64,000 nt of DNA from Syntrophales bacterium (GCA_963668175.1 OY764159.1:2112001-2176000), one strand, 5' to 3'; shown: positions 1 to 19,216, counted from the stretch's first letter. A program made the numbers and translations. The notes: generated from the sequence alone by a model not told the origin.

Positions 1-6
1 AAAGGC

Positions 7-345
7 GCGCCGGGGCAAGAAAGACGTGCCGGGGCAAGAAAGATGCGCCGGACGGCGGCTGCATCGTGCGGGTTGTCCGCGCGCGGGCGGTTGTGGTATA
101 GATAAGCCGTCGTAGGAAAAAAAGAAGATCCGTCGGGCTGGAAAGCGCACCGGGGCAAGAAAGTCGCACCGGCGGGGCCGGAAAAATTCGCCGGAGCCGG
201 AAAAGCGCGCCGGTGGCGGGGCCGGAGAGACGCTTCAGGGCCGGAAAGAAGCACCCGGGCAAGAAAAACACGCCGCTGCCGGAAATACGCTCCGGCAGGG
301 CCATCACAACGGGGCCGTCACAACGGGGCCGTCACAACGGGGCCG
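7..345. repeat. Low-complexity intergenic short repeats (GC(G/A)CCGGGGCAAGAAAG-like copies; 3x tandem TCACAACGGGGCCG at 304-345)
   Basis: Direct inspection: about four copies of a ccggggcaagaaa-like motif and a perfect 14-bp x3 tandem. Confidence 0.7.
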
Positions 346-390
346 GAAAAACACGCCGGGAGAACGATCCCAGGCAGAAAGGCATCGGGC

Positions 391-1545
391 ATGCAGGGAC
401 AGGAAATCGGACAGGAAGCGAAAAGCGCCGCCGTTCCCGTCACGGGCGGGAAGCGGACGCTCGGCCCCAGGGCGAAGGTCGCCGCGGCGGGGGTGAAAGA
501 CGGGACGCCCGCGCACGGCATCGTCGAGGCGGTGCGGGCGGCGGTCCTGAAAGCGACGGACTTCTCCTGGCTCGCCAAGGGCGACACCGTCTTCGTCAAG
601 ACGTCCAACAATTCCCCCAACGCCTATCCGGCCACCACGAGCCCCATCGCCGTGGTCGCCGTCGTCGGGCTCCTCCGGGAGAAGGGGGCGGGCCGGGTGA
701 TCGTGGGCGACATGTCCGGCGTCCAGTACGTGCGGTTCTCGCCGGAAAGGACGACGGGCAGCACCCGGAAACTCATGGCCGCTACAGGCATGGCCGCGTC
801 GGTGGCGGCCGCCGGGGGCGAGCTGCACTGCTTCGAGGAGGCCGGGTGGGACGCCTTTTACGAGGACATGCCGGCCACGGGATCGCACTGGAAGCGGGGC
901 CTCATGATGCCCAATATCCTGAAGGCGGCGCAGCACATCGTCCTCATGCCCCGCTGTTCCCGGCACATGATCGCCGGCAGCACCCTGGGCCTCAAGGCGG
1001 CGGTGGGCTACTGGCGGCACGACACGCGGCTGGAATACCATCACGCCGCCGCTACCCTGCAGGAGAAGACGGCGGAAGGCAACACGGTTCCGACGCTGCT
1101 TGCCAAGCAGCGCCTGGTCGTCACGGCGGCGGACAAGCTCCTCGTCACCGTCGGGCCCGACATGGGGCATATCTACGTGCCCGATCCCGGCCTGATCTTC
1201 GCGTCCGAATCGGTCGTCGCGCACGACATGGTTTCCCTCGCCTGGCTCCTGTACAACCGGCAGGAGATGCCGGACCTGCGCTGGGAGGTCATGGCGGACC
1301 GGAGCGCCGTCGTGCCCCGCGTCGCGAACCGCGTCGTCACACGCTGGCTGGGCGGATGGGGCAAGGCCCTGACGGTGGAGCGCGTAACCAAGGACCGCCT
1401 CGACACGATCTGGGACGACCGCACCCTGAACCGCAGCTACGACCTCTTCGGCGGCGTTCCCGACGTCTCGCTCGCGTCGTCCAAAGGCGACATCGCCGCC
1501 GGACTCATCGCCCGCCTGGCCGGGATGACGGCCGTGCCGGACTGA
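391..1545 (+). CDS. DUF362-family protein
   Basis: 384-aa ORF with GC3-biased codons; GDTVFVK..N, TSP..V, TLGLKAAVG and SVVAHD motifs typical of DUF362. Confidence 0.75.
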   Translation: MQGQEIGQEAKSAAVPVTGGKRTLGPRAKVAAAGVKDGTPAHGIVEAVRAAVLKATDFSWLAKGDTVFVKTSNNSPNAYPATTSPIAVVAVVGLLREKGAGRVIVGDMSGVQYVRFSPERTTGSTRKLMAATGMAASVAAAGGELHCFEEAGWDAFYEDMPATGSHWKRGLMMPNILKAAQHIVLMPRCSRHMIAGSTLGLKAAVGYWRHDTRLEYHHAAATLQEKTAEGNTVPTLLAKQRLVVTAADKLLVTVGPDMGHIYVPDPGLIFASESVVAHDMVSLAWLLYNRQEMPDLRWEVMADRSAVVPRVANRVVTRWLGGWGKALTVERVTKDRLDTIWDDRTLNRSYDLFGGVPDVSLASSKGDIAAGLIARLAGMTAVPD

Positions 1546-1712
1546 GCCGGGGCGCGCCGTTTGCCGCCCGATGTCGTCGCGCCACAACGGTGTTGATTAA
1601 TATTGCGGCAGGTGGTACGTCTGCCGGGCGTCCCGCGCTTCGCAAGGGGAGGGCGGGCCGCAAGCGAAAGTCTTAGCGCACAGGAACAAATGCCATAACA
1701 GGAGAAGAAAAG

Positions 1713-2009
1713 ATGATTTCACTCGTTGCGAAAATGACGGTAAAAGAGGACAAGAGGGAAGAGGCCGTCGCGGCCATCAGGGAATTGGTCGCGGAGACGG
1801 CCAAGGAAGAGGGAACGCTGTTCTATACGGTGAACCGCGATCTCAAGAATCCGGACACGTTCGTTTTTATGGAACGCTACAGGGACAAAGCCGCCCTGGA
1901 TGCCCATGCGGCAAGCCCGCATTTCAAGGCGTTTTCCGCCAAATGCCCGGGGTTCATGGCCGGCAAGGCGGAGCTTACGAGGCTGGAAGAAATCCTTTCG
2001 GCCAAATAG
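1713..2009 (+). CDS. ABM-family (putative quinol) monooxygenase
   Basis: 98 aa; EEGTLFY, FVFMERY..KAALDAHAASPHF motif; RBS AGGAG upstream. Confidence 0.88.
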   Translation: MISLVAKMTVKEDKREEAVAAIRELVAETAKEEGTLFYTVNRDLKNPDTFVFMERYRDKAALDAHAASPHFKAFSAKCPGFMAGKAELTRLEEILSAK

Positions 2010-2178
2010 ACTGCTCTCGCCAAATGCCCGGGGTTCCTGGCCGGCAAGGCGGAGCTTACGAGGCTGGAAGAAATCCTTTCGGCCAAATAGACTGTTCCGC
2101 CAAATGCCCGGCGTTCCTGGCCGGCAAGGCGGAACTTACGAGGATGGAAAAAATCCTTCCGGCCAAATAGACGGTTCC
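1937..2178 (+). repeat. Three tandem ~80-bp copies of the 3' end of the ABM gene
   Basis: CGCCAAATGCCCGG...GGCCAAATAGAC units start at 1937, 2018 and 2098. Confidence 0.95.
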
Positions 2179-2582
2179 AACCGCCGCCGAAGCTGCCATA
2201 GCCTCGGCGGCGTCCCCGATATCCTCCCGCTGCCGTCCTCCAAAAACGACACCGCCGATATATCGTTCGCGCCCCGAAGGCGGCATCGCCGCCGACACCC
2301 CCACCCGCCCGGCCCGGATGACGGCCCCCGCCACCTGTCTACCCGCCGGAGCCTGCCGATACTCACGATCTTGATTGCGAAGAAGGGCTGGCTGTAAGCC
2401 TTTTGCCCAGACCATACAATACAGAAATAAGTATAAGATTTGTCATCATAATTATATTAAAAAGCATTATTGACATGGCGTGTGGAAAAGTGTAGATGTT
2501 ACTAATCCTCTCCTCATAGTATTTATTAAGTCAAGTAGATACATATCAACATAACAAGACCTTTATTTAGGGCCAAAACGAC

Positions 2583-3188
2583 ATGACAGAAGATGATCGG
2601 AAGAAGAAACGTTTCGATGTGGCTGTCCAAATCAGAAATTTTGAAATTAACTTGTTTTGGAAGAGATCCCTTTTCTTTTGGGGCTTCATTGCATCGGCAT
2701 TCGTTGGCTATGCAGCATTGAGTAAATATCAGTCAGACCTCTCTGTCATTGTGGCGTGTTTTGGTATGGTTTGCTCGTTTGCGTGGACACTCGTCAATCG
2801 AGGTTCCAAATACTGGCAGGAAAGCTGGGAAACAAAGGTTGAGAAGTATGAAGCCGTCCTAATCGGTGCACTTTTTGCGGAAGAGGAAGCAGTGCAGAGT
2901 CATAAAGGTTTTTGGCTAGGTGCTAGAAAATATTCCGTAAGCAAACTTGCGACAGCGTTAAGTGATTATGTTTTCGTCCTCTGGTTTATAATTGTAGTTA
3001 AAGATTTCATCAATCGTTACCTGATCATATGTAAGTATGCTTATCTGGAAGAAATCGGAATCACTTCTTTCGTCGTATTTTCATTCAGTTACTTATTGCT
3101 CTTATTATGGTGCGGCCGGAAGACATCACGACCTAAAAAGACGGAATTATCATCCAAATGGAATGTCTCAAACCGAAACCGTCCATAA
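2583..3188 (+). CDS. Multi-pass membrane protein (FEINLFWKRSxFFWGF / GSKYWQESWE family; RipA-like putative oligomeric membrane protein)
   Basis: Low-GC 201-aa ORF with about four hydrophobic segments; family assignment from motif memory only. Confidence 0.6.
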   Translation: MTEDDRKKKRFDVAVQIRNFEINLFWKRSLFFWGFIASAFVGYAALSKYQSDLSVIVACFGMVCSFAWTLVNRGSKYWQESWETKVEKYEAVLIGALFAEEEAVQSHKGFWLGARKYSVSKLATALSDYVFVLWFIIVVKDFINRYLIICKYAYLEEIGITSFVVFSFSYLLLLLWCGRKTSRPKKTELSSKWNVSNRNRP

Positions 3189-4257
3189 ATCGAATAAATA
3201 AGTGGAAAATGATATGGACACGCTGACTTTGATTCAAATCAGTGATCTGCATATGCCAAGATTAATAGGAGAGCCGTCGAATATTGACTGGAAAGATAAG
3301 GGGTTTCCAAAACAATTAGGTCAGATAATAGTTACTCCTCGATGGCAAAGCGTAATGAGAGAATTGATAGATTATATTGAAAATAACCGACATTCAATCG
3401 GGGGAATTATTATCTGTGGTGATTTGACGGACAAAGGTGATTTATCAGGTTATGAGAATTGCTTAACATATTTAAATGAAACTCTGCAAATCGCCGATGA
3501 ACAAAGATGGCAAAAAAATCAAGTGCATATAGTTCCAGGGAATCACGATATTAACCGCAAGACGAATGATTCTAACAGTGGGGACATTTATCTCAAATTT
3601 GAACCATTAATCATGGCATGGCATAATTTAGGATTGCCAATCCTAACTACGAGAGGAGCTAGGCAGACACAAATGTCGGCGAATGGTAATAGTGTTGATG
3701 TTTTTTCAATAAATTCCTGTATTGGATGTGGTGAAAAGCGCTATATGCCCGCAGAAATTAAGGAGCAAATGCATGAAATGCTCAGGACAAACAATGAGTC
3801 TAATCTAATTTGGGAACAACTAGATACGCCAGCATTTTCAGAAGACGATATTAACAAGATTATAGCTAAAATCGATCAATTGTCCGGTTTGTCAGTGGGC
3901 GTGGTTGTAGCTCATCATAATTTATTGCCCCAAGTATCCCCCAGGCTTGAGATATACACGGAGGTTATCAATGGTGGCCTTGTGAGATCACGGTTGTCCC
4001 AGTGTAAACACCCCGTGATATATTGTCACGGGCATGTTCACGAAGATCCGATTGAAGTGGTGTTCAATGCAAGATCGAGGCGTAGCCGTCTGATTTCGAT
4101 AGCGTGTTCCAAGTTCACTGACGGATTCAACATCATTAAACTACATTTCTCCCGTCACGAGGTGAAGTAGCCCCCAATTGAACCGGACACTTTGAATCTG
4201 GAAATAAGTTGTAGGAATAGATATAGAGATATTACTACAACCAGAAAGAAGGTGTTT

Positions 4258-4635
4258 ATGGTTCCTGTAGAAGTGATCGTCGGTGTACAGAGGCGACGTC
4301 GCTGGTCGGCTGCCGAGAAGAAGTCGATGGTGCGGGAGGCGGAGCAGCCGGGAATGAGCATCTCGGCTGTAGCCCGGAAGTATGACATCCATCCGAACCA
4401 GTTGTTCCACTGGCGCAGGCTTGCCGAAGAAGGGGCTCTGTCGGCGGTTGGTGCAGATGAAGGCGTCGTTCCTGCATCGGAAGCCAGAGAACTGAAAAAG
4501 CAGATCCGGGAGTTGGAGCGTCTTCTGGGCAAAAAGACAATGGAGGTGGAGATATTAAGGGAGGCTGTCCGGATTGCCCGTGAAAAAAAACTGATCTCGC
4601 GGTTGCCGTTGTTGCCGGAGGACGATTCCCGATGA
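4258..4635 (+). CDS. IS2-type transposase OrfA (HTH)
   Basis: RRRRWSAAEK...SISAVARKYDIHPNQLFHWR; start codon uncertain. Confidence 0.88.
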   Translation: MVPVEVIVGVQRRRRWSAAEKKSMVREAEQPGMSISAVARKYDIHPNQLFHWRRLAEEGALSAVGADEGVVPASEARELKKQIRELERLLGKKTMEVEILREAVRIAREKKLISRLPLLPEDDSR

Positions 4636-5480
4636 AGACGGTTGTCGATACGCTGGACGTTTCCCGTTCCCGGCAGTACGAAAGGCAAGGGAAGGAAGCC
4701 GATTCGAGAAGCCGCCATTACAGGAGAGGCGACGATGGCAGATATCTTCTTCTGATCAGGCAGGTTATTGATAATCGTCCCAGTTACGGCTATCGGAGAG
4801 TAACGGCAAGAATCAACAAGCTTCTGGAACGTCAGGGGCATCCGGGAGTTAATCCCAAACGGATTTATCGTCTCATGAAGATGCACAATCTGCTTCTTCA
4901 GCGGCATACGGGTAGGCCGGCAAGGCTTCACGAGGGTAAGGTCACGACGAGACGGAGCGATCTTCGTTGGTGTTCTGATGCGTTTGAGATTGCCTGCTGG
5001 AATGGGGACCGTCTCCGGGTAGCGTTCAGCATGGATTGTTGCGACAGGGAAATCATGAGTTATATAGCCACGACAGGGGGCGTATCCGGCGACATGGTCA
5101 GGGACTTGATGGCGGAAGCCATTGAGGCCCGTTTCGGTATGATCAATCGGCTGCCTCACAGAATCCAGTGGCTGAGCGATAATGGTCCTGCGTACACCGC
5201 CAGGGAAACGAAAAGCTTTGGGCAGATGATGGGGCTTGAGGTTTGCACGACCCCGTTCTATAGCCCGGAATCGAACGGAATGGCCGAATCCTTTGTCAAG
5301 ACCTTCAAGAGGGATTATGTTCATCTGAATATCCTGACTGATGCCGAAACGGTCATGAAGCAACTGCCCGGATGGTTCGTAGACTACAATGAAAACCATC
5401 CGCACAAGGGATTGAAAATGATGTCGCCCAGGGAGTATAGGAGACATCAAAATAAGTTAGAACAGTGTCCGGTGAAATAG
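4632..5480 (+). CDS. IS2-type transposase OrfB (DDE/rve)
   Basis: YGYRRV, WCSD, WLSDNG, SPESNGMAESFVKTFKRDY. Confidence 0.95.
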   Translation: MKTVVDTLDVSRSRQYERQGKEADSRSRHYRRGDDGRYLLLIRQVIDNRPSYGYRRVTARINKLLERQGHPGVNPKRIYRLMKMHNLLLQRHTGRPARLHEGKVTTRRSDLRWCSDAFEIACWNGDRLRVAFSMDCCDREIMSYIATTGGVSGDMVRDLMAEAIEARFGMINRLPHRIQWLSDNGPAYTARETKSFGQMMGLEVCTTPFYSPESNGMAESFVKTFKRDYVHLNILTDAETVMKQLPGWFVDYNENHPHKGLKMMSPREYRRHQNKLEQCPVK

Positions 5481-5818
5481 GGGCAACTCCACGAGGTGCC
5501 TTTAGGATGTACAATTATTCCATATCGAGTTAGGAATGATGGATCTGTGAAAACCCAGGAAGAGATAAGTATTCCATTACGGACAAGTTTAGATACCCAA
5601 CTAATCTCAGATCAATTAACAAAGGCCATATTATCGAACATTAGACATGATTGGATTCGATTTGAAGAGATACGAAATGGAGTTGAGAGCCAGGGAACAT
5701 CAAAGCCGCAGAAGAAAACACTTGCGCATGCACTCAAAGAGCTTCAATGGCTCGGTTGCATCGAGATTAGGAATTCTGAAGAGGATGCGAAGCATTGGCA
5801 AGTCAAAAGGACGGAGTC

Positions 5819-7819
5819 ATGATGAAATCGCCTTTTCAAACGGCCAGATTTGAATATGAAGGAGAACATCTCTATTTTTTGCCAACAAATTTCATGAATG
5901 TTCTTGAATTACCTAAACCCGTTTACTTGATAGGATCCAGGGGTACAGGAAAAACTACGCTTCTTAAGGCATTAAATTGGAATGAACGAATTAACAATAC
6001 TTCTTTGCAGCGACAATTGGGATCAGATATTTTTATTAAGAGGTATATTGGTGTCTACTTCAAATTGCCTGATCATCGCTTTGATGCCCTTGATGCGAAG
6101 CTGCAACAAGAAAATAAAGACTTAGGCAATTTGATAAGATCTTTATATATAGATGTACTTGGTTTACAGCTCCTTGTCGATGCCATTTCCGAATTAATCA
6201 TCAATAAAATCATTATGGCCACACCAAAAGACGAGCAGAAATGTGTAACGTCAATTCTTGAGGACTTTGAAGAGTGGTTTCAGCCAATCATTGAGAATAT
6301 ATTTTCAAAAAAGCCTGCAACATTAAAGAATCTTAATAATTTGTTTCGTAGTATTCAGTTGACGATTGAACGATATGCGATCTATGGAGGAGAAGCTTCA
6401 TCTGTCGCGTCTGATTACACTGGTCAAATTGGTGAATTTGGAAGATGCGTTGCAAAGCGACTCGGTGAACTGTGCAATATACAAATCGATGAACCGATGT
6501 ATAAATGGTTTTTCAAAATCTGTATGGACGAGGGTGAGTGTCTAAGCAATAACGACCGTCTGGTATTTAACACAATGACCCGTCTTTCAGAATGGCCACT
6601 ATTTCACGTAGTATGCTTTGTTGAACGTCCAGAGGATATATCGAGCACGTTGATTCCGAATTTAACATTGTCTGATGCTGATCGCACACTGATATTGCTT
6701 GAAGATATGACTGATAGGGAATTCCGAATTCTGGGAGAAGGAGTGGCGACAATTCGGATGCAAGAGTTGCTGGAAGATTTTACCGTTAAATTTGATACCA
6801 AGATGTGTTTAGGAAAATTGAATATAAATAAGATGGCGATGTCTATCTTGGAAGAATCAACAAGTAGAAAAGCAAAAGATCTTCTAGCGAATGCGCGTGA
6901 GAAAATGAAAGATCCCATTATTTGTAATATGCTCTCAGGAAAGGCTGATCAACGCGCGGATGATGAAGATACGCTGATCGAAAAAAGTGAAGAAATAAAT
7001 TTAGATCTACTGCCCATTTATCAGACGTATCTTATTCAGAAACTTAATTTGGTATTACCGACGCCCGATGATCCGCAGTGGGCGAGAAGAGCACAGGAAA
7101 GCGCAGAGTTGAGAAAGAAAATGGTGGCAGCATATTTATCACTATGTGATGAGATGGGGATGAATGTTCGTTATGCGACAGCTGATATGGTTCTGCAAAT
7201 GAGTGATAAATGTATTCGTGATTTCTTGACTTTTATACATGAAATATTCATCGAAAGCAAGTTCAGCCTACATAATTTTATAAAGAATCAAGTTCCAATG
7301 AAAATTCAGGATAAAGCAATTAAACATGCCAGCAATCTAAAGAGAAATTCGTTAAAGCAGTCTGGAATAATATCACCAACTGAAGCTGGGCGTATAATCG
7401 ATGCTCTCGCGAAAATTACTAAATATATTCAAACGAAGAGTCCAGATCTTTCTCATTTAGAGGCCACTGAAAGAGGAAAATTCACTTTATCAATGCAGCC
7501 AACAGAAAGGGAAATATTCACTTCGGTGTTAAAATTGATTAAAGATGCAGCTCAGGCAGGGTTTTTAATCATCTCTCAGGAGGGTGAATCAAAATGGAAA
7601 TTCAGGGTTCATACCTCACTGGCCGCATTTTTTGGTTTTTCATATCGTGGGGCGTACTATGATACACCTCTGGATATTAAGGAATTAGACGCTATCAGAC
7701 AGAGTTCTGACCTAGATGATTTTGAGAAGCATGTTGAGAAAATATCCAAGAGATTAGCAGGCTGGAAGAATGATATAGGAACCCTATTTGAGTGGAATAA
7801 AGATGGAAACAGTATTTAG
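5819..7819 (+). CDS. P-loop NTPase (ORC/CDC6-like / STAND-like AAA ATPase)
   Basis: Walker A GSRGTGKT, Walker B ICMDEGE; ATG overlaps the upstream TGA (ATGA at 5819-5822). Confidence 0.8.
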   Translation: MMKSPFQTARFEYEGEHLYFLPTNFMNVLELPKPVYLIGSRGTGKTTLLKALNWNERINNTSLQRQLGSDIFIKRYIGVYFKLPDHRFDALDAKLQQENKDLGNLIRSLYIDVLGLQLLVDAISELIINKIIMATPKDEQKCVTSILEDFEEWFQPIIENIFSKKPATLKNLNNLFRSIQLTIERYAIYGGEASSVASDYTGQIGEFGRCVAKRLGELCNIQIDEPMYKWFFKICMDEGECLSNNDRLVFNTMTRLSEWPLFHVVCFVERPEDISSTLIPNLTLSDADRTLILLEDMTDREFRILGEGVATIRMQELLEDFTVKFDTKMCLGKLNINKMAMSILEESTSRKAKDLLANAREKMKDPIICNMLSGKADQRADDEDTLIEKSEEINLDLLPIYQTYLIQKLNLVLPTPDDPQWARRAQESAELRKKMVAAYLSLCDEMGMNVRYATADMVLQMSDKCIRDFLTFIHEIFIESKFSLHNFIKNQVPMKIQDKAIKHASNLKRNSLKQSGIISPTEAGRIIDALAKITKYIQTKSPDLSHLEATERGKFTLSMQPTEREIFTSVLKLIKDAAQAGFLIISQEGESKWKFRVHTSLAAFFGFSYRGAYYDTPLDIKELDAIRQSSDLDDFEKHVEKISKRLAGWKNDIGTLFEWNKDGNSI

Positions 7820-8819
7820 ACAATCATATCTCAAAGGGACGTCAAACAGATTAAACGATGTAAAACAACTTGAGGGAAAATATGATTTGTTCATATGTGC
7901 CTCAAGTTGGGATGGGAGGTGTGTTTGTGTAACGGATTCAAAAATCAGTGTGGATTATGCTATTCCCATATTTTTCAGCGTACGAGATAACATGGGGCTT
8001 CGTGATAAATATGATAAACTGATTTTAAAATACTGCAAAAGAATAGCAGCAAGAACGATTCCTATATCAGGAGCGTCGATAAACGTTGAAATGATGTGGA
8101 ATGATTTACATAAAAATATTTTGACAATAATGGAGAGTGTGCATCGTCCTTTGGATATAATAATTGATATTTCAACGCTGCCACGATATTACTACGGTGC
8201 TATTTGTGCCTTAGGAATTAAGACGGGATTTGCTCATAAGATTACCTGTTTCTATGCTGAGGCAAACTATCCACCCCCCAATCAAGCAGAGCAGGAAATC
8301 GCATTCACAGGAGGCAGTTGGAGGGCAATTCCAATTCCCGGGCTATTGGGTGATTATGATCCGAGAAAGAAAAGATTTTACTTAGTTTCAATTGGTTTTG
8401 AAGGATGGAAAACACTTCGTGTCGTTTCAAGGGCTGATCCAGAAAGAGTATCAATATTATTTCCTGATCCCGGATTTGATATGGAATATCCTGATAGAAC
8501 ACTAAATAATAATCAAGAACTGATCTGGCAATACAAAGTACCTGATACACAAGTCGTAAAAGCACATGCTGGTGATGCAATAGGAGCTTGGAAAGCGCTG
8601 AGCATTAATTCAGTAGAGAGGGCTGAAGAGGAGAATACATATTATCTCTGCAGTGGCACAAAACCGCATTCATTAGCCATGATTTTAAGGGCTATGGCGC
8701 TCAAATATCCAGTCGTCCTCTACAATCGGCCTGATGAACATAATGTAGTATTAATTGAGCCGAATGGAAAATATTGGAAATATGAAATTAAAGATTTAAC
8801 GGTATGTCGATATGAGTGA
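7803..8819 (+). CDS. Hypothetical protein, possibly CARF/Rossmann-like partner of the ATPase
   Basis: DISTLPRYY, IGFEG, PDPGF, SGTKPHSLA motifs; overlaps both neighbours. Confidence 0.6.
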   Translation: METVFRQSYLKGTSNRLNDVKQLEGKYDLFICASSWDGRCVCVTDSKISVDYAIPIFFSVRDNMGLRDKYDKLILKYCKRIAARTIPISGASINVEMMWNDLHKNILTIMESVHRPLDIIIDISTLPRYYYGAICALGIKTGFAHKITCFYAEANYPPPNQAEQEIAFTGGSWRAIPIPGLLGDYDPRKKRFYLVSIGFEGWKTLRVVSRADPERVSILFPDPGFDMEYPDRTLNNNQELIWQYKVPDTQVVKAHAGDAIGAWKALSINSVERAEEENTYYLCSGTKPHSLAMILRAMALKYPVVLYNRPDEHNVVLIEPNGKYWKYEIKDLTVCRYE

Positions 8820-9663
8820 TGAGAATCAACCGGTTTTCCCCATCCTAAAATGGCCGGGGGGAAAGTCATGGTTAGCCGAGAGACTTAGTCAGATTATTGG
8901 AGATGAGATTGCTACTAATGGCACATATTATGAGCCATTCTTAGGTGCAGGTTCTATATATTTCTATTTTCGACCAGAAAAGAGTATCTTGTCAGATGTA
9001 AATCCAGCACTGATAAATTTTTATAAATGTCTGAGAAATAATTCAGATAAGATTATTAAACGTGTGTGGTCATTTTCGAATAAAAGCGAATGTTATTATA
9101 AAGTGCGGAATATGCACCCTCGAACAGACATTGGAGAATCTGCGAGATTTCTATACCTAAATAAAACATGCTGGGGTGGTGTGTATAGACTGAATCAAAA
9201 AGGTGAATATAATGTACCATTTGGTAATTCAGGGAGGAAAATATGCAGTCGCAATAGGGTCTTAGCTGCTGCGGACGCTTTGCGCAATGCAACTCTGATA
9301 TGCTCAGATTTTGAACCTATAATGACAGCGGCTAAGAATGGAGATTGTATATACGCCGATCCACCATATAGTACCTTAGGGCAGAACAACGGATTCCTCC
9401 GGTATAATGAGAGATTATTCAAGTGGTCAGATCAACAAAGACTTGCCAGATCATGCCGAGATTCTGCCGATAGGGGTGCATTTGTCGCGATAAGTGCACT
9501 TTGGCATGATGATATATTAAAGTTGTTCCCTGATTGGTGGGCATGGAAAATAGAAAGAAAGTCACTAATAAGCAGAAAAATTGAAGGGCGTCGTTCAATT
9601 TGTGAAGTTGTTATATTCAGTAATAAGCCGGGATCGATATCAGAAAACATTACAAAAATATAA
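8812..9663 (+). CDS. Dam-family (D12 class) N6-adenine DNA methyltransferase
   Basis: KWPGGKSWL, YYEPFLGAGS, FLYLNKTCWGG.YR.N..G.YNVPFG, catalytic YADPPY. Confidence 0.93.
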   Translation: MSDENQPVFPILKWPGGKSWLAERLSQIIGDEIATNGTYYEPFLGAGSIYFYFRPEKSILSDVNPALINFYKCLRNNSDKIIKRVWSFSNKSECYYKVRNMHPRTDIGESARFLYLNKTCWGGVYRLNQKGEYNVPFGNSGRKICSRNRVLAAADALRNATLICSDFEPIMTAAKNGDCIYADPPYSTLGQNNGFLRYNERLFKWSDQQRLARSCRDSADRGAFVAISALWHDDILKLFPDWWAWKIERKSLISRKIEGRRSICEVVIFSNKPGSISENITKI

Positions 9664-10054
9664 AAAATGAGAGGCTGGATTCAATTAGATTAGCAGAAAA
9701 TAACAGAAATCCGATCATATTTTAAAACACGAATGATGAATTTTTTGTACAGTAGCGGTATTCACCTAACAGTCACCCCTGCGCGGGGATAGATATTCAG
9801 GCTGCCTTTTTCTCTTCTCTATAATCTTCGCATTCGATCCATAATCCTTTTGAAAAGCCCCCCCCACCCCCAAAATCCCCCAAAATAGTCCTGCCCTTTT
9901 TGCCGCTCTTCAAGTAGAATGACCGGACGGGCAGTACGGGCGGCTTGGCGTCCGGCCGGGATGTCGTACGGGATATCGGCCGGGCGGCGCGCCCTCGCAA
10001 CGGATAACGCCTGCGCGCAGGCAATACATATCGGGTGGACCGGAGGTTTTCGCA

Positions 10055-10648
10055 ATGAAGAAGGTCGTATGGGGATTGATTGGGGCCCTGCTTATGGCGG
10101 GGTCGGTTTATGCGGCGGAGGATGTGACGGGCAAGGACGTCTTTTCGGTGATTCATTCGCGGAAGAGCGTCCGCCATTTCACGGGGGCGGCCGTCTCCCG
10201 GGCGGATTTGGAAAAGATCGTCCGGGCGGGGATGGCGGCGCCGACGGCGGGCAACATGCAGCCGTGGTCGTTCGTCGTCGTCACGGAGCGCAAGACGCTC
10301 GACGACCTGGCGGCGGGCCTGCTGAATGCCCGGATGCTCGCCAAGGCGGGCGCGGCCATCGTCGTCTGCACGGAGGAGGCGAAGGCCAACGCGAAGAAGC
10401 GGGACCTGGCGATCAGCGATGCGTCGGTCGCGGGGGAGAACATCCTCCTCGCCGTCGAGGGGCTGGGGCTCGGGGGCGTGTGGACGGCCGCGAATCCCTA
10501 TGAGGACCGCGTGAAGGTCGTAAGGACGATCCTCAACATTCCCCCGGAGGTCATCCCGCTGAACGTCATCGCTATCGGCGTCCCCACGGGCGAGGACAAG
10601 CCGAAGGACAAGTTCAAAAAGGAAAAAATCCACTGGGAAAAGTGGTGA
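10055..10648 (+). CDS. Nitroreductase family protein
   Basis: SRKSVRHF, AAPTAGNMQPWSF, LGLGGVW; N-terminal signal-like segment. Confidence 0.92.
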   Translation: MKKVVWGLIGALLMAGSVYAAEDVTGKDVFSVIHSRKSVRHFTGAAVSRADLEKIVRAGMAAPTAGNMQPWSFVVVTERKTLDDLAAGLLNARMLAKAGAAIVVCTEEAKANAKKRDLAISDASVAGENILLAVEGLGLGGVWTAANPYEDRVKVVRTILNIPPEVIPLNVIAIGVPTGEDKPKDKFKKEKIHWEKW

Positions 10649-10709
10649 CGGGACCAGGGCGGGCGTCTGCCGCCGCCGAAAAACGAAACAAAGGGGGGGA
10701 GCTTCATCC

Positions 10710-11282
10710 ATGAACGCGGACGACGAGAAGTGGATTGCGGATATCGAATCGGGCGACGTGACGGCGGCGTTCGAAGCCGTTAAGCAAATCGCCCATCGCG
10801 AACTCTCCGGGGAGGCCATAGACCGGATAGCCCGCATCGCGGGAAACGGGGCGGCGCTGCACAACCGGGCCGCGGCCACGGGCGTCCTCGGCAATGTCGG
10901 CAACCGGGATGCCGCCCTGACAGTATTGATCGGCCTTCTGGCCGCGCCGGACCAGCACGAATCCGTCCGCGGGTTCGCCGCCGAGGGTATCGCCGCGCAG
11001 CGCCCGGCAAACCGGACCAAGCTGAGAAAGAAGGCGGAAGGCGTTCTCATGCAGGCCCTGCGGGACCCCTCGCCGACGGTCAGGTTCTGGGCGTGTTACG
11101 CCGTCGGCCAGCTGGGCATGAAAAAGGCCCTTCCCATCCTGAAGGAAATGAAAGCGGGCGATTGCACGCTGTGCCCCGGCTGGTGGTACGTCTCGGAAGA
11201 GGCGGCGGACGCCGTCGAATGGATCCACGGACGGGCGGGCGAAACGCGGGTGCCGGTGCATGAAAGAACGTCGGAGCATTAA
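10710..11282 (+). CDS. HEAT-repeat protein
   Basis: VRGFAAEG, LRDPSPTVRFWACYAVGQLG. Confidence 0.75.
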   Translation: MNADDEKWIADIESGDVTAAFEAVKQIAHRELSGEAIDRIARIAGNGAALHNRAAATGVLGNVGNRDAALTVLIGLLAAPDQHESVRGFAAEGIAAQRPANRTKLRKKAEGVLMQALRDPSPTVRFWACYAVGQLGMKKALPILKEMKAGDCTLCPGWWYVSEEAADAVEWIHGRAGETRVPVHERTSEH

Positions 11283-11303
11283 CCGGCGCGGGAAGGCCGC
11301 CGC

Positions 11304-11861
11304 ATGAACCCGGCAACGCATTTTCTCGCCGGGTGGCTGATTGCGAACGTCGATCACCTGGGACGAAGGGACCGGGCGTTAGTGACGGCAGCGTCGGTCA
11401 TCCCCGATGCCGACGGCCTGGGGATCCTCGCCCACACCGTCACGAACGCCCACGACGGGTGGGCCTTCTACGCGAAGTACCACCACGTCCTTGCCCACAA
11501 TATCTTCTTCGGCCTGGCCCTGACGGCCGGCGTTTACGCCGTCTCGAAAAAGCGGGGCCTTGCGGCCTTTCTCGCCTTTCTCGGCTTCCACCTGCATCTC
11601 CTGTGCGATCTCATAAGCGGACGCGGCCCCGACGGGACCGTGTGGACCGTCGCCTATCTCTACCCCCTGGTCCCGGACTTCCGGCTTTCGTGGTCCGGCC
11701 AGTGGGAGCTGGACGCCTGGCCGAACTTCATCGTCACGGCCGTCTTTCTCGCGGCGACGTTCTATCTCGCCTGGCGGCGGGGCTTCTCCCCGGTGAGCAT
11801 CTTCTCGGAACGCGCGGACCGCGCCGTCGTCGCATCGCTCCGCAGCCGCTTCCCCCGGTAG
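11304..11861 (+). CDS. Membrane-bound metal-dependent hydrolase (YdjM-like)
   Basis: TH, PDAD, HH..H, HL.CD motifs; hydrophobic. Confidence 0.8.
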   Translation: MNPATHFLAGWLIANVDHLGRRDRALVTAASVIPDADGLGILAHTVTNAHDGWAFYAKYHHVLAHNIFFGLALTAGVYAVSKKRGLAAFLAFLGFHLHLLCDLISGRGPDGTVWTVAYLYPLVPDFRLSWSGQWELDAWPNFIVTAVFLAATFYLAWRRGFSPVSIFSERADRAVVASLRSRFPR

Positions 11862-12752
11862 GGCCGTCCGGGCGTCCTGCCCGGTTATGATGCGCGGTAG
11901 GGGCGTCCTCCCGGAAGACGCATAAAGACTGGGGCGAACTCCCTGCGGAATACTGCAAAGCCGGGGCTTTCCGCACGCGGATATCGGCCCGCGGCGGTTT
12001 CGTTCGGATTATTACGGATATCCTGGATGCGATGACGGCAGGGGGGGAAGGGTGCTGCGCACAAGCGGCAGCGGGGCTTCCCGGCATGGGGAGGTCCAGG
12101 CCCGCTACGCTTCCGCGGAGACGGTCCGCAAAACGGGGCCGCTGCCGCGGAAACGGGAGAATCGGGGCTGTCCTTTGCGGGGAAGAGTCGGCACGTCTGA
12201 AAGCCCCGGGACATCGTATGGAACAACATCCCGGGGCATCCAACGTGGAACGTTGGAACACCCCCACCACTGCACCCCCCATAACACATTTTTGCCCTCT
12301 TTTCACCATGGAAGTGACAATTTTCGTCTGCTGCCTGTGCCGCGAATAGCATAGGCGCGCAGTCGACGCTTCATGTTAACCGGTTTTTCCGCCCCGGCGG
12401 CGCGACCGCCGCGCCGCCTTCGCCCTATACATTCCTTATACAATAATGCTTTACAAAACAGCCCGATTCGTATATCGAAAATAGGAGCATTTGGAGGGGG
12501 GCCATGAGAAGCACACCTATGCTTCCTTTACCGGCACTTTTATCGTCGGCTTCCTTTGTCCTTCGGGCGGCCCGCCCGCGCCGCGCTTTCCCCGTCTCCG
12601 TCCGCCTGCGTTCGATTCCGGTCCGTCCGTCTCTCTCCGCCGCCGGCTTTCGTCCGCCTTTCTTTCCCGAACATCGGCATGCCTGTCTTCTGCGGCGTGC
12701 CTGTTTATAGGGTTCACTGTGGATTTCATTCATAGATACAGGGGGGTATTTT

Positions 12753-15245
12753 ATGAGAATATCTGCGGAATCGAAGCGGCGGGCGTTCGCGCTGTCGCTG
12801 CTTTTCATCCTTTCGGGCTGCGCGAGTTTCAAGGACATCGAACCGACGGACGTCTACTGCAGCATCGCGCCCTGTCCCGGCTACACGGAGTATAAAAAGG
12901 CGGGCGAGCTCTACATTCAAAGCGAAGTCGACGAGGCGCTGACCAGGATAGACGCCGCCCTGAAGGCGGCGCCGGGCCAGAAGAAGTACGGGGCCCTGAG
13001 GGTGGACATCCTCAAGCGGCTCCAGTATTTCCAGTTCCAGGAAGACTGGGAGGCGTACGGCAAGATCCCGAAGGGGGACCTGGCCAAAAGGTCGGCGTCG
13101 CTCAAGGATCTCAAGTATAAGACGGCGGCCTACGAGCCCTGCCGCGATGCGGATGACGCCGCGGCGAAGGTGGATGAGGAAAGCAAGGCCGTTGCGGCGG
13201 AGACGGAGGCGTTGAGCGACCTGCCGAAGAAGACCGGCGAGGCGGCCGCCAAAGGGGATTGCGACGGACTCCTAGCGCTCCTCGCCAAGGCGAAATATTA
13301 CCGGGCCTACCTGGAGGCGAACGGGAAGAAGGCCCCCGCCATCGAGGACTACCGGACGGAGCTGGAAGGCTGGATCGACAAGGAGTACGCCGCCCACAAC
13401 TACCGGCACGTCGTCTGGATCCTGAACAAGATGGACGAACTGGCCGGCGGAAGCGGCCTGGCCGGGAAGCGCCGCGCGAAGTACGCCGCCTTCTACAAGG
13501 CCAGGGGGGACGAGTTCCTCCGCAAGGGCCGGATCGCCACGGCGGTCTTCTATATGGCCCTGGCCGACCGCTTCAAGCCCGGAACGGCGGACAAGGCTGT
13601 CGTCGAGGGGGCGCAGAAGAGGCTCGCGGACTACAAGGAGAAGCTGTACGTCGCGATCCAGGGCGGCCCGGACGACAAAAAGACGAAGGAAAGCCTGGAA
13701 AACGCTGTCCGCGAAAAGATGGCCGCCGCCTTCGCGGGATATTTCGGCCGCGCGCAGACCCTCTCCGAGGCGACGGTTGCCGTGACGGTCGGCATCGACC
13801 GCCTGGAGAACGCCGTCGAGCAGTCCAAGACCCGGACCATGTATTCCAAGTTCGTCTCCGGATACAACAGGGTTCCCAACGACGACTATTACCGGACGGA
13901 GCGCCAGCTTCAGGATGCGCGGGCGAGGCTGCGGCGCCTGGAGCGGCAGAGGACGGACACGTGGGCCGGGGCCATCGTGAGCGGACTCGCCCAGGGCGTG
14001 CAGGCGGCGGAAGTGACCAACCTGGAGAAGAAGATGGCGAGCGACGACGTCTACGACAAGATACCGATCCTCGTCGATTACAGCTACCAGCGGACGGACG
14101 TCAAGATCGCCAACGCCGTAGGGCTTTCGTACCGCATCGTCGACATGAAGCGGAAGAAATCGCTCAAGGAAGACACCTTCGGCGAGACGGGCGGCGAGGC
14201 GCTCTCCGTCCTCGAAAACGTCCATCCCGAGGACAACGGCGGCCTGGTCAATTCGACGCCGTTCGATCCGGCTGCGAAGAAGCAGGAGTTCGACGAGTTC
14301 GCGGCAAAGGTCTTCCAGAAGGCCGCCGACAACATCGCGGGGGACGCGTCTGTCCTCTTCGACGAGCGGGCGAAGGACTACGCGGGGCTGGGCGAACTGG
14401 CCGACGCCGTGGACAGCCATCTGACGGGGTACATCCTCAAGGCGGGCAAGCTGCCGGACACCCTCTTCGACGCACTCCCGAAGGACGCCGCCGCCCGCAT
14501 CGACGACCTTTCGCCCCAGTCCGGCCTTGCGAAGAAGCTCGCGAAGCGGACCGCCGTGCAGATGCAGTTCGCATCGCGGCTGAAGACGACGACGATGACG
14601 GCCAGGGCCTCGGAACCGGCCGCGAAGGCGGCGGTGACGGCGAAGGCAGCGGATGGGGACGGCCCCGCCCTTGTCGAGGGCAGCAGGGGCAAGATCGTCT
14701 TCGTCAAGAACATCGCCAAATCGGGGATATCGCAGGGCAGCGGTTTCCTCGTCTCGCCCCGGGGCCACGTGGTGACGAGCCACCGGGTCGTGAGGAATGC
14801 GACTGCGATCGTCGTCCGGACGTCGGACGGCGCGGAGCACGTGGCGAAGGTGGTGAAGGCGGACAGCGCAAGCGACCTGGCGCTGCTCAAGGTCGATCTC
14901 AGCGACGCCCCGTTCTTTAAGCTCTGCGACTCCAACGCCCTGACGCCGGGCCAGGCGGTGGTCGCCGTCGGCAGCCCGCAGGGGGCGGAGCAGGCGGTTT
15001 CCCGCGGCGTCATCAGCGAGCTTGCCTATATGACGCCGGCCAAGTCGAAGGCGAAGCTCCTCGTCATCCGGACCGATGTGCCCGCCATGCAGGGAAACGG
15101 CGGCGGGCCGCTGCTGAACGAAGCCGGGGAGGTCGTGGGCGTCCATGCGCCGGGCCTCGACACGGGCGGGGCCGATAAGGAAGCGGGCCTTTGCGCCGTG
15201 GCGACGGACGAAATCAGGAAGCGCCTCCAGAGCGTCTTTCCGTAA
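12753..15245 (+). CDS. Lipoprotein with helical N-terminal region and C-terminal trypsin-like (S1C/HtrA) domain, catalytic His and Ser apparently substituted
   Basis: Lipobox LSGC; GSGFLVS, VVTSHRVV, DLALLKV, QGNGGGPLLN. Confidence 0.8.
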   Translation: MRISAESKRRAFALSLLFILSGCASFKDIEPTDVYCSIAPCPGYTEYKKAGELYIQSEVDEALTRIDAALKAAPGQKKYGALRVDILKRLQYFQFQEDWEAYGKIPKGDLAKRSASLKDLKYKTAAYEPCRDADDAAAKVDEESKAVAAETEALSDLPKKTGEAAAKGDCDGLLALLAKAKYYRAYLEANGKKAPAIEDYRTELEGWIDKEYAAHNYRHVVWILNKMDELAGGSGLAGKRRAKYAAFYKARGDEFLRKGRIATAVFYMALADRFKPGTADKAVVEGAQKRLADYKEKLYVAIQGGPDDKKTKESLENAVREKMAAAFAGYFGRAQTLSEATVAVTVGIDRLENAVEQSKTRTMYSKFVSGYNRVPNDDYYRTERQLQDARARLRRLERQRTDTWAGAIVSGLAQGVQAAEVTNLEKKMASDDVYDKIPILVDYSYQRTDVKIANAVGLSYRIVDMKRKKSLKEDTFGETGGEALSVLENVHPEDNGGLVNSTPFDPAAKKQEFDEFAAKVFQKAADNIAGDASVLFDERAKDYAGLGELADAVDSHLTGYILKAGKLPDTLFDALPKDAAARIDDLSPQSGLAKKLAKRTAVQMQFASRLKTTTMTARASEPAAKAAVTAKAADGDGPALVEGSRGKIVFVKNIAKSGISQGSGFLVSPRGHVVTSHRVVRNATAIVVRTSDGAEHVAKVVKADSASDLALLKVDLSDAPFFKLCDSNALTPGQAVVAVGSPQGAEQAVSRGVISELAYMTPAKSKAKLLVIRTDVPAMQGNGGGPLLNEAGEVVGVHAPGLDTGGADKEAGLCAVATDEIRKRLQSVFP

Positions 15246-15567
15246 TGCCCGGTGCGGCAGGCGGGCGGTTTTTCAAATGGCGGCAGGCGGGGACAGACGG
15301 TCTGACGTTTTGTCCCCTCGCGCCTGTCCCGAGGCGGCGGGGAACCGGGACCGCGACGATGCGGCCCGATCCGGGCCGCGCGGTGACTTTCCGGTCTCGA
15401 TACGAAAAGCCGTTGCATCATAAAATCCCGCCTTCGCCAACCGGGGGACGGTTTCCCCGGGGGTTCATTCGCCTTCAAAGTCAATCCGGATCGCATTCCC
15501 GCCGATCGTTTAAGCAAATCCCGGCCGGTGCAGCCCTCGAACCGATTTGCATCCTGTCATACCTGTT

Positions 15568-15670
15568 TGCGAAATATCGCACCGTTATTTGCGAATATTC
15601 GCATAAACCATGACGAAAATTTCCTAACATATTAATATTGCGTAATTTATTGTATGGCATAGTCTATGCT
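15568..15670 (+). promoter_or_regulatory. Sigma54 promoter (TGGCATAGTCTATGCT, 15655-15670) with two upstream palindromic putative enhancer sites (15568-15581, 15590-15603)
   Basis: Correct GG-N10-GC spacing; TGCGAAATATCGCA and TGCGAATATTCGCA lie 22 bp apart. Confidence 0.7.
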
Positions 15671-15706
15671 TTATATAAGTTCAAAAAAGCTGCGAGGTTG
15701 ATAAAA

Positions 15707-15997
15707 ATGAAATGGCTAGAGATCGTGACTTTGCAGGTTGCCGGGAACAACCGGGAGATCGTGCAGCGAAAAATCGCCGGCTTGATGGATGTTATGGACT
15801 CCAACAGCGGCATAGAAAAAGTCAACGTATACCGCCGTGCCATGACGGGAAACGACGTGAGTGTCCATCTTCAGTGGGAATCGGAAAGTGTCAGCCCCCA
15901 GGGAAGCGCGCTGGGCCTCTGCCTGTGCAGCGCCCTTGCACAATACGGCCTCCTTTCGCACGAGGTCTGGACGGATAGCGGCAGGAAAGCCCTGTAA
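15707..15997 (+). CDS. Small hypothetical protein
   Basis: ATG at 15707 after GAGG; MKWLEIVTLQ...; downstream of the sigma54 promoter. Confidence 0.6.
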   Translation: MKWLEIVTLQVAGNNREIVQRKIAGLMDVMDSNSGIEKVNVYRRAMTGNDVSVHLQWESESVSPQGSALGLCLCSALAQYGLLSHEVWTDSGRKAL

Positions 15998-16018
15998 CAA
16001 AAGGGGATGTTCCTTTTT

Positions 16019-17245
16019 TTAGAAGGTCTTCCCGGCGAATCCGTCGTATTCGTCGGCGTTTGCATCCATGGCCTTCCCGTCGACATCCACGCCGCCGAAC
16101 TTGAATACCCAGTGCGACGGATCGATCAGACCGTTGCCCGAAGCGTTCTGGCTGATCGTAAAAGAGACCGTGGCCCGGCAGGTCTTCGGGTCGTAAGTGA
16201 CGCTTTTCGGCAGAGGCGGTATCGCGATTTGCCTGTCGGCATCCTGCCGCATGCCGTTGTTATAAACCCCTGCCGTACCGCCGGCGGCCTTGCCGATGGA
16301 CCAGTTCATCGTGTTTTGCACCGAAGAAGGGTCCATCTGCCGGTCGAACTGAAACGCCATCGTGAATGTCTGCGACGCCCCCGGTGTTGCCAGCCTGTAA
16401 TCCAGAAAATAGAGGGGGGTGTTCGGCCCGAATCTGGACTGGAAGTCCGGTTTGTCGGCGCTCCCGCTTTTGCCTCCTTGCGTCATCCGGGGTTTTATCG
16501 CCGTCGACTGGATTTCGTTCGCCAGGGAACGGCCCAGATCCGTATGAAGATCGTTCAGCGCCTTGACCTGCTCCAGCGCCTTGTCCGTCTTGCCCAGACC
16601 GATATAGGCGTATGCCATATCGGCATAGGCATACTCGAATTTCGGTTTTATCTTGACCGCCTTCTGGAATTGTTTGACCGCCTCGTCGTATTTCTTCTGT
16701 TTGTTGTAAACCTGCCCAAGGCCGTAATACCCGGCTTCGTCGCCGGGGGCCAGGTTGATCATCGCGCTGAATTGAGCCGCCGCGTCCGTCAGGCGGTCGG
16801 TGGCCAGATAGATGCTTCCCAAATACTCGCGGGCGTCGGCGGATGAAGGCGACAGCTTCGATATTTTGAGAAATTGCTTCTCGGCGTTGGCATAGTCTTT
16901 GTTCTCTATGTAGGCTTTGCCGAGATTCTTCAGGGCGTCCGTCGAGGTCGGCTGCGCCTGCACCGCTTTTTGCAGCGTCTTCATGGCATCGTCGGCCTTA
17001 CCCAGCTTGTTGTACGCCGCAGCCAGGTATTTGTAGGCGTCCGTGTACGTCCGGTCGTACGAGATCGCGGCTTTGAATGCCGTTACGGCTTGCTGAACCT
17101 TATTTTTCTGCAAATAACGAATTCCCGCCGAATAAGCTGTTACGGCATAATCGTTATGTTGCGACTGGAGTCCGTCGAGGGAGGAAGTCGACAGGCCGGA
17201 TGAAGAGAAAAGAGAAGCGGAGATCAGATTGTTAAGACTCGACAT
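16019..17245 (-). CDS. TPR-repeat protein
   Basis: About six TPR-like repeats (AYKYLAAAY, ALKNLGKAY, GYYGLGQVY); start set at MSSLNN. Confidence 0.85.
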   Translation of the reverse strand: MSSLNNLISASLFSSSGLSTSSLDGLQSQHNDYAVTAYSAGIRYLQKNKVQQAVTAFKAAISYDRTYTDAYKYLAAAYNKLGKADDAMKTLQKAVQAQPTSTDALKNLGKAYIENKDYANAEKQFLKISKLSPSSADAREYLGSIYLATDRLTDAAAQFSAMINLAPGDEAGYYGLGQVYNKQKKYDEAVKQFQKAVKIKPKFEYAYADMAYAYIGLGKTDKALEQVKALNDLHTDLGRSLANEIQSTAIKPRMTQGGKSGSADKPDFQSRFGPNTPLYFLDYRLATPGASQTFTMAFQFDRQMDPSSVQNTMNWSIGKAAGGTAGVYNNGMRQDADRQIAIPPLPKSVTYDPKTCRATVSFTISQNASGNGLIDPSHWVFKFGGVDVDGKAMDANADEYDGFAGKTF

Positions 17246-19205: not shown

Positions 19206-19216
19206 ATTGACCTCCT

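Follow-up and report, generated by a model that had tools for sequence, protein, structure and literature searches.

We analysed a gene cassette lying in a 64,000-nt stretch of DNA from Syntrophales bacterium (GCA_963668175.1 OY764159.1:2112001-2176000), which as a whole is called the window here and whose numbering is used throughout. The cassette occupies most of a low-GC island containing five genes, all on the plus strand, and one insertion sequence (IS). Four of these genes overlap in series and encode, in this order, a calcineurin-like phosphoesterase ending in a winged helix, an ORC-CDC6-like AAA+ ATPase, a stand-alone tandem-CARF protein and a Dam-family DNA methyltransferase. The locus is an additional, IS-inactivated member of a cassette family that is catalogued but uncharacterised. 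The island and the features of the cassette are as follows.

Low-GC island, about 2400-9790 (~7.4 kb), no strand: delimited by the drop in GC content.
Phosphoesterase gene, 5' part, 3202-4162 (open reading frame (ORF) to 4170), plus strand: the whole calcineurin-like catalytic domain (PF00149, E 1.6e-8).
IS3-family element, 4163-5491 (1329 bp), plus strand: TG...CA ends and imperfect terminal inverted repeats of about 28 bp.
orfA of the IS, 4192-4635, plus strand: HTH_Tnp_1.
orfB of the IS, 4632-5480, plus strand: rve.
Phosphoesterase gene, 3' part, 5497-5822, plus strand: beta-rich linker and C-terminal ORC/Cdc6-type winged helix, in frame after removal of the IS.
ORC-CDC6-like AAA+ ATPase gene, 5819-7819 (the ORF opens with TTG at 5795; ATG at 5819 and 5822), plus strand: PF24389.
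Stand-alone tandem-CARF protein gene (CARF6 type), 7803-8819 (the ORF opens with TTG at 7788), plus strand: 343 aa, PADLOC CARF6 models.
Dam-family N6-adenine DNA methyltransferase gene, 8812-9663, plus strand: DPPY motif; PF02086, E 5.7e-42; TIGR00571, 202 bits (cut-off 114.85).

GC content is 0.36-0.42 over about 2400-4150 and 5500-9750, compared with 0.59-0.69 in the flanks and 0.558 in the whole genome. All three junctions between the cassette genes overlap, as read directly from the sequence: the TGA of the phosphoesterase gene and the ATG of the ATPase gene share ATGA at 5819-5822, the CARF gene begins, with its ATG at 7803, 17 nt ahead of the stop of the ATPase gene, and the ATG of the Dam gene (8812) lies 8 nt before the stop of the CARF gene. 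The initial annotation, made on this stretch before the present analysis, had described four overlapping low-GC genes in an island of this size within a high-GC backbone, and its coordinates, its GC contrast and all three overlaps were confirmed. Its gene list was right for these four and had left out a fifth gene, which encodes an 8xMP-family membrane protein. The four domain calls that it made (phosphoesterase with winged helix-turn-helix (wHTH), ORC/CDC6-like ATPase, CARF/Rossmann-like protein and Dam methylase) also held, being borne out by Pfam, PADLOC, NCBIfam and fold matches.

The first gene of the cassette is broken. The IS3-family element that splits the phosphoesterase gene is bordered by a 5-bp target duplication, CGAGG, at 4158-4162 and 5492-5496; the interrupted frame enters the IS for 2 codons and stops at 4170, and the 3' part as it stands is a 108-codon frame (5496-5822) that has no Pfam match. 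When the IS and one copy of the duplication were excised by reference, joining 3202-4162 to 5497-5822, the rejoined frame had 428 codons and no stop, with 62% identity over 424 columns to an intact homologue, P0217. Intact homologues are mostly 420-440 aa long, and the likely start of the window gene is the ATG at 3214. Because removal of the IS restores a stop-free frame of 428 codons, close to the length of the intact homologues, the insertion looks recent and clean. The cut falls between the catalytic domain and the C-terminal winged helix, and the genes downstream of the IS are probably less expressed as a result; the system is most likely off in this genome, with the methylase gene still intact. 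The 1329-bp IS unit is present in the genome in six full-length copies of 99-100% identity. A second copy within the window (about 36598-37926, minus strand, 99% identical) is surrounded by low-GC ORFs for which Pfam gave no match (36032-36529 and 37924-38760), and this site may be another disrupted foreign locus.

The fold of the phosphoesterase was read from a model of the intact homologue P0217 (predicted local distance difference test score (pLDDT) 88.7). The core is closest to GpdQ (Z 20.9), with Lmo2642, purple acid phosphatase and Rv0805 at Z 20.1-20.3, and a PDB sequence profile search with the phosphoesterase returned Lmo2642 only. For the metallophosphoesterase core in common with the Mre11/SbcD nucleases the scores are lower (Z 14.5-16.9), and no Rad50/SbcC partner is encoded in the cassette. 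Residues 346-425 of P0217 resemble winged helices of ORC1 (human and fly) and of archaeal ORC2/Cdc6 (Z 10.1-10.7), so that the earlier reading of this gene as a phosphoesterase-wHTH was right, with an ORC-type winged helix at the C-terminus. The metal motifs DxH, GD, GNHD, HH and GHxH are invariant across 40 phosphoesterase homologues, and so is a Cys-rich stretch, NSCIGCGE. Pfam PF24408 (wHTH-Calcineurin_assc) has no match in the host genome, and against the NCBIfam model of the anti-phage phosphoesterase DS9_1 P0217 scores 40.2 bits, the cut-off being 420.

The ATPase is about 670 aa long and matches PF24389 with 162.6 bits (cut-off 27; E 2e-47) from residue 26 to residue 619, which covers model positions 18-565 of 571. 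Its Walker A motif, GSRGTGKTT, and an acidic MDEGE stretch are invariant across 21 ATPase homologues. A PDB sequence profile search with this protein gave matches at the level of the P-loop only, and a locus search of genome contigs with the ATPase alignment found nothing, the patterns being dominated by the P-loop.

Eleven PADLOC models of the CARF6 type match the tandem-CARF protein, the best of them (PDLC01922, E 1.5e-17) over model positions 7-293 of 295. Pfam gave no match for the window's protein; among 43 members of its family, HFX_2341_N weakly matches six and Csa3_N matches three. An AlphaFold2 model built with 43 homologues (mean pLDDT 95.9) consists of two Rossmann-like domains, and the 343-aa protein has these two CARF domains only, with no effector domain. 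The CARF identity comes from VIA, an alignment-independent structure search, in which the top match of the model was Can1 (6sce), a receptor of cyclic tetra-adenylate with both CARF domains in one chain, at Z 11.9 with 235 residues aligned over model residues 31-319; taken by itself, the C-terminal domain matched Cam1, Can2, Card1 and Csa3 at Z 9.8-11.0 (Z 8.7-11.0 when Csm6 is included, root-mean-square deviation 2.5-3.9 Å), and SAVED domains matched across both domains (Z 6.2-8.2). Like Can1 and the SAVED receptors Cap4, Cap5 and CalpL, the protein carries two CARF-like Rossmann domains in one chain, as a pseudo-dimeric sensor does; unlike them, it has no fused nuclease, protease or other effector, and no Cas10 or CD-NTase partner was found. 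Sequence identity to Can1 and the SAVED receptors is only 7-12%. Foldseek of the model against the PDB gave only weak tandem-Rossmann matches (template modelling (TM) score <= 0.29), a PDB sequence profile search with the protein found no relative, a locus search with the single protein found nothing, and the ESM Atlas returned only clusters named 'hypothetical protein'. The invariant residues S40, R44, D127, G203, G206, G290, K292 and H294 fall on loops following strands 29-38, 122-127, 195-201 and 282-288, which are strands one and four of either domain, and by comparison with CARF structures we take these as the loops that bind the ligand in the two domains. Searched with a profile, a set of 1.84 billion representatives gave 1560 clusters at E <= 1e-3, of which 239 reached E <= 1e-30; the best 150 representatives listed are mostly of similar length, and the shorter ones match part of the profile only.

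The nearest solved relatives of the methylase are M.DpnII 1 (4.3e-35) and E. coli Dam (1e-26), and to judge from its sequence GATC specificity is likely. It is the only D12 methylase in the host genome, in which the observed/expected ratio of GATC is 0.92, a value uninformative on methylation or restriction pressure. The statement of the initial annotation that no recognisable restriction nuclease stands beside the methylase was upheld, as no nuclease family of Pfam or PADLOC was detected in any island protein, the sole exception being a 75-residue metal-motif match of the phosphoesterase to the PADLOC 'Effector endonuclease' model.

Metagenomes commonly contain homologues of the ATPase, of the CARF protein and of the phosphoesterase. 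Compared with the window copy were 21 related loci: four from metagenomes (L010-L013), those of metagenome-assembled genomes (MAGs; L014-L017 and L038-L049) and one from IMG/VR (L036). L037, whose contig is identical to that of L014, and L050, a match of 30 residues only, were left out. In all 21 the order phosphoesterase, ATPase, tandem CARF is kept wherever the contig covers it, that is, in 7/7 of the loci L010-L017 that have upstream sequence (L013 begins inside the ATPase gene) and in 13/13 of L036 and L038-L049. A D12 methylase gene is adjacent in 20 of the 21, the contig of the remaining one (L046) ending 340 bp after the CARF gene. The initial annotation had singled out conservation of the methylase with the other three genes as a test of its proposal, and the methylase does travel with them, usually downstream and on the same strand. 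It lies upstream in L041 and on the opposite strand in L012, L042 and L048, and in L047 a DndB-like gene (8092-10431, 779 aa, E 1.3e-9) stands between the tandem-CARF gene and the Dam gene. With this gene set found again in 21 related loci, the arrangement goes far beyond chance; and because the order of the triad is fixed while the position of the methylase varies, the triad seems to behave as one translational unit, with the methylase as a looser companion.

The hosts of these loci belong to Verrucomicrobiota, Planctomycetota, Desulfobacterota, Actinomycetes, Dormiibacterota, Acidobacteriota, Pseudomonadota and Bacteroidota, besides the one viral (IMG/VR) contig; the bacterial phyla represented in the cassette family number at least eight. 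Homologues of the ATPase, the CARF protein and the phosphoesterase were not found when 400 other genomes of the host phylum were searched, which yielded weak partial matches only, and none of these genomes has a full-length ATPase homologue. Because of this absence and of the low GC content, the island appears to be of foreign origin, acquired horizontally. In L015 (13817-14770) and in L041 (9038-9817) the gene directly behind the cassette encodes a ThyX (Thy1) thymidylate synthase; the two hosts are unrelated, one being a member of the Planctomycetota and the other of the Dormiibacterota; these neighbours hint at a link to nucleotide metabolism. The IMG/VR contig has two D12 methylase genes, at 2255-3145 and 8999-9883: besides the one linked to the cassette there is a divergent one 1.6 kb upstream of it. 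Rank correlations of identity to the window copy, calculated over 17 loci, were discarded as too crude.

Transposase genes were found inside 4 of 22 cassettes, namely the window copy, L039, L042 and L043. IS inactivation of this cassette type is recurrent, which supports the view that such cassettes are costly. The methylase is intact in all four damaged cassettes, a count that is not statistically meaningful given the methylase's share of the cassette length. The transposase genes of the three relatives are placed as follows.

L039, 5049-6179: DDE transposase gene, splitting the ATPase gene.
L042, 6745-7830: DDE transposase gene, splitting the ATPase gene.
L043, 4718-5818: DDE transposase gene, between the phosphoesterase and ATPase genes.

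The wider family was sampled through PF24389, which was present in 8 of 401 genomes of another phylum, and eight loci (L028-L035) were annotated. A CARF6 gene directly follows the ATPase gene in six of them, the exceptions being L028, where the contig ends, and L034, which has a different, 1222-aa architecture. The effector position is taken by PRTase-CE (PF24390) in L028, L030 and L033, with a HAD-fusion gene adjoining in the last two, and by a phosphoesterase in L029, where PF24408 stays below threshold (21.9 bits against 27), and in L031, L032 and L035 a Ser/Thr kinase is fused to the ATPase. The window ATPase is distantly related to those of the PRTase and kinase forms (ATPase profile, E 1e-5 to 1e-15). 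Because PRTase-CE or a fused kinase replaces the phosphoesterase beside ATPase and CARF6, the phosphoesterase is, on this comparison, a putative swappable effector, with the ATPase and the CARF protein as the predicted sensor core. The proposal of the initial annotation that the phosphoesterase is the effector gains support from these replacements. Its 'ATPase sensor' stood as far as the ATPase goes, whereas the role of sole sensor did not, and a sensor pair of ATPase and tandem CARF is the better reading. Moreover, against the PADLOC model PDLC01925 ('CARF6--CARF_STK_AAA') the kinase-ATPase of L032 aligns to positions 3-815 and the neighbouring CARF protein to positions 892-1184; since one natural kinase-ATPase-CARF polypeptide exists, effector, ATPase and CARF would work as one machine, by the Rosetta stone argument. 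A homologue of Druantia DruA (E 9.9e-63) lies at 5499-6719 of L032, immediately beside the kinase-type cassette, and suggests a defence-island setting for this variant.

Membership of the window cassette in this PF24389 and CARF6 family is indicated by its ATPase, its downstream CARF6 gene, its upstream effector (upstream or fused in the family) and its linked methyltransferase, a DNA methylase being often present in the PRTase-CE and kinase forms too. It differs from these forms in its effector, a calcineurin-like phosphoesterase with a winged helix, and in the linkage to Dam in 20 of 21 close relatives. The combination of genes had been described as matching no named system, and indeed there was no system-level match in PADLOC or NCBIfam; its parts, on the other hand, are already catalogued (CARF6, PF24389, PF24408 and PF24390), the likely sources of these families reportedly being Makarova et al. 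2020 for the CARF classification and Nicastro et al. 2023 for nucleotide-targeting effectors. No description of this cassette was found in the literature on Calcineurin-CE and PRTase-CE, and literature searches on CARF6 and 8xMP gave nothing relevant.

Several known systems resemble the cassette in part. BREX, as presented in a related survey (PMC12839542), has no classical restriction nuclease: its methylase acts on adenine, its ATPase (BrxC) is of the ORC/Cdc6 clade and carries a winged helix, and a third protein belongs to the phosphatase superfamily. The logic of methylase, ORC/Cdc6-clade ATPase and phosphatase-type protein without a restriction nuclease is similar here. The two differ in that BREX has PglZ, of alkaline-phosphatase fold, a BrxC of 1200-1300 aa and PglX, and no CARF protein, whereas the cassette has a calcineurin-like enzyme, an ATPase of about 670 aa and a small Dam. 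Homologues of PglZ, BrxC and PglX were not indicated, as no BREX model of PADLOC matched any of the six island proteins at E <= 0.01, and no description of this cassette was found in the accessible part of the same survey (PMC12839542). The mad1-mad8 set of MADS is not present either, a weak mad8 match being confined to the P-loop region (residues 40-80, E 4.6e-4). With type II restriction-modification of the DpnII/Dam kind the cassette shares a bona fide Dam-family methylase; it differs in having no recognisable endonuclease, and the partners of the methylase are an AAA+ ATPase, a CARF sensor and a metallophosphoesterase. The PUA-calcineurin-HAD system of E. coli ECOR28, according to the accessible part of its description, is triggered by Dam-derived N6-methyl-dAMP (m6-dAMP) released by chromosome degradation and depletes deoxynucleoside triphosphates (dNTPs) (10.64898/2026.01.15.699771). 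In that description it couples, as the cassette may, a calcineurin-superfamily effector to a nucleotide-sensing domain, and it depends on host Dam methylation; the cassette differs in lacking PUA and HAD domains, in having as separate sensor a tandem CARF and an AAA+ ATPase, and in bringing its own Dam. Finally, the best Foldseek match of the P0217 model was Bacillus subtilis YydB in the YydD-YydB model (PDB 9a6c; E 1.5e-13, 428 columns), a metallophosphoesterase modelled with a partner protein, at 13% identity and TM 0.43-0.48; a search for informative literature on YydB and YydD returned none.

On balance, we lean towards regarding the locus as a horizontally acquired, IS-inactivated copy of an unnamed family of conflict cassettes, most likely anti-phage, whose core is the ORC/Cdc6-like ATPase with the tandem CARF protein. 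The initial annotation's reading of a defence operon with a linked methylase and the phosphoesterase as effector is plausible, and it is strengthened because the gene set is conserved and the effectors are swapped. In such a system Dam, acting in trans, would mark the host chromosome as self, probably at GATC, while the ATPase, as a DNA-binding, ATP-driven switch, and the tandem CARF protein, with a pseudo-dimeric pocket for a nucleotide-type ligand, would form a joint sensor. Upon infection, unmethylated DNA and/or the nucleotide ligand could lead to ATP-dependent assembly. This assembly would activate the phosphoesterase, which its winged helix may anchor on DNA or on the ATPase, and the activated enzyme would hydrolyse phosphodiester bonds, in DNA ends or in nucleotides, so that phage replication or the infected cell is stopped.

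Several observations weigh against this interpretation. The island lies outside any obvious defence island, being flanked by genes for an ABM monooxygenase and a nitroreductase. A methylase is adjacent in only three of the six complete distant loci (L029, L031 and L035, those of L031 and L035 being of the N6_N4 type), none being seen adjacent in L030, L032 and L033, and because it is missing beside half of the complete distant cassettes, self-marking by methylation cannot be obligatory for the core. The fold of the phosphoesterase model leans towards small-molecule and cyclic-nucleotide phosphodiesterases rather than Mre11/SbcD, and DNA cleavage is not favoured by it. No gene of the cassette is able to make a CARF ligand, and SMODS (PF18144), Csm1 (TIGR02578) and Cmr2 (TIGR02577) scored above cut-off in none of five carrier genomes, these being the complete host genome and the four MAGs that carry L014-L017, of which the completeness is not established. 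The cassette thereby departs from type III CRISPR and from the cyclic-oligonucleotide-based antiphage signalling system (CBASS), in these five genomes as regards the cyclase and also in having no fusion of sensor and effector; because no cyclase model exceeded its cut-off, the CARF ligand is probably not a CRISPR or CBASS messenger. Lastly, no experimental data on any member of the family were found in the literature searched, outside which Makarova et al. 2020 and Nicastro et al. 2023 lie.

The missing cyclase and the accompanying Dam could also be explained by an alarm derived from the methylome, an explanation that we consider unlikely. The cassette's methylase would then label the host chromosome instead of shielding DNA from the effector; phage-induced degradation would free N6-methyladenine (m6A) nucleotides, the CARF protein would bind them, and the ATPase would activate the phosphoesterase, which would deplete nucleotides in an abortive infection. 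The PUA-calcineurin-HAD system, with its m6-dAMP trigger and dNTP depletion, offers a precedent as far as the accessible part of its description goes (10.64898/2026.01.15.699771), and the cassette likewise sets a nucleotide-sensor fold without a cyclase beside Dam and a calcineurin-like enzyme of small-molecule phosphodiesterase fold. The occurrence of PRTase-CE with HAD-fusion proteins in related cassettes and of ThyX beside L015 and L041 would fit as well, and cassettes without a methylase would be tolerated in hosts that methylate anyway. The winged helix of the phosphoesterase and the ORC-type ATPase, however, point to DNA handling; the N6_N4-type methylases of L031 and L035 mean that the chemistry of the mark may differ; and the ligands known for CARF domains are cyclic oligoadenylates and RNA ends, m6A nucleotides not being known to be among them. 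Less likely again, and bolder, is a self-contained form of this alarm, in which the cassette's own Dam would stamp the chromosome, the tandem CARF would be the receptor for the freed m6A nucleotides, and the ATPase would activate whichever effector is plugged in. If this were true, CARF6 would be the first CARF class tuned to a ligand derived from damage instead of one synthesised enzymatically, and the association of a DNA methylase with a nucleotide sensor would be accounted for.

It is improbable, in our estimate, that the cassette has no immune function and serves a mobile element as a selfish module for addiction or epigenetic control, with the methylase as antidote or regulator and the other proteins as post-segregational killer or DNA-maintenance factors. 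Such a module would account for the patchy, horizontally spread distribution, for the copy on a viral contig and for the resolvase and integrase genes beside some loci; the intact methylase in 4/4 IS-damaged cassettes would recall decaying restriction-modification systems, but the methylase makes up ~13% of the cassette and four insertions would all miss it by chance more than half the time. Immunity is the better fit to the swapping of effectors around a sensor core and to the presence of CARF6 models in a defence-oriented library, a DruA gene of Druantia adjoins the kinase-type cassette L032, and addiction and defence are in any case compatible. We give very little credence to an accessory acting in trans, in which the CARF protein would sense cyclic oligoadenylates or CBASS signals made elsewhere in the genome, by type III CRISPR or a CD-NTase, and the phosphoesterase would be an effector or an off-switch degrading the signal. 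The best structural matches of the CARF protein are indeed receptors of cyclic tetra- and hexa-adenylate (cA4/cA6; Can1, Csm6, Cam1, Can2, Card1 and Csa3) and SAVED proteins, and the phosphoesterase fold is closest to cyclic-nucleotide phosphodiesterases and glycerophosphodiesterases; yet neither a Cas10 of the Csm1/Cmr2 type nor a SMODS cyclase is above cut-off in the five carrier genomes, and no CRISPR or CBASS gene lies beside the 21 close loci among the annotated ORFs, the flanks having been scanned in part.

To our knowledge, the only signals that CARF sensors are understood to receive are the cyclic oligoadenylates made by type III CRISPR. In the present family a CARF class as a whole is tied instead to an ORC/Cdc6-like ATPase, to interchangeable effectors and usually to a DNA methylase, with no cyclase found, and the identity of the CARF6 ligand would tell both what is sensed by CARF domains that act outside CRISPR and by what means methylation and an effector of abortive type are coupled. 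The window copy adds to this family a clean example of IS inactivation and a host whose only D12 methylase is borne by the cassette.

The remaining genes of the island and its borders are the following.

ABM monooxygenase gene, 1713-2009: left flank of the island.
8xMP-family ('octameric membrane protein') gene, 2583-3188, plus strand: PF24838, E 1.8e-30; 13 nt 5' of the phosphoesterase gene.
Nitroreductase gene, 10055-10648: right flank of the island.

The 8xMP gene was considered as a component of the system and rejected, a homologue being present in 0 of 29 related loci screened; it is presumably a separate passenger or a local add-on. No tRNA gene lies within window positions 1-20000, no direct repeat joining the left and right ends of the island was found, and in an empty-site comparison the left flank was not conserved in 20 relatives. 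Scans for promoters (28 promoter-like sites against 20.1 +/- 4.2 expected) and for terminators (2 terminator-like sites against 5.2 +/- 2.7 expected) were uninformative. At the left edge of the island, the 3' end of the ABM monooxygenase gene, with its stop codon, is repeated in tandem at window positions 1937-2177 (three copies of 80 bp, 90-100% identical), with no matching copy at the right edge; the three copies may be footprints of repeated site-specific integration at the end of the ABM gene. Elsewhere in the window, another low-GC patch includes a gene for an FRG-domain protein (42326-43237, minus strand, E 5.8e-22).

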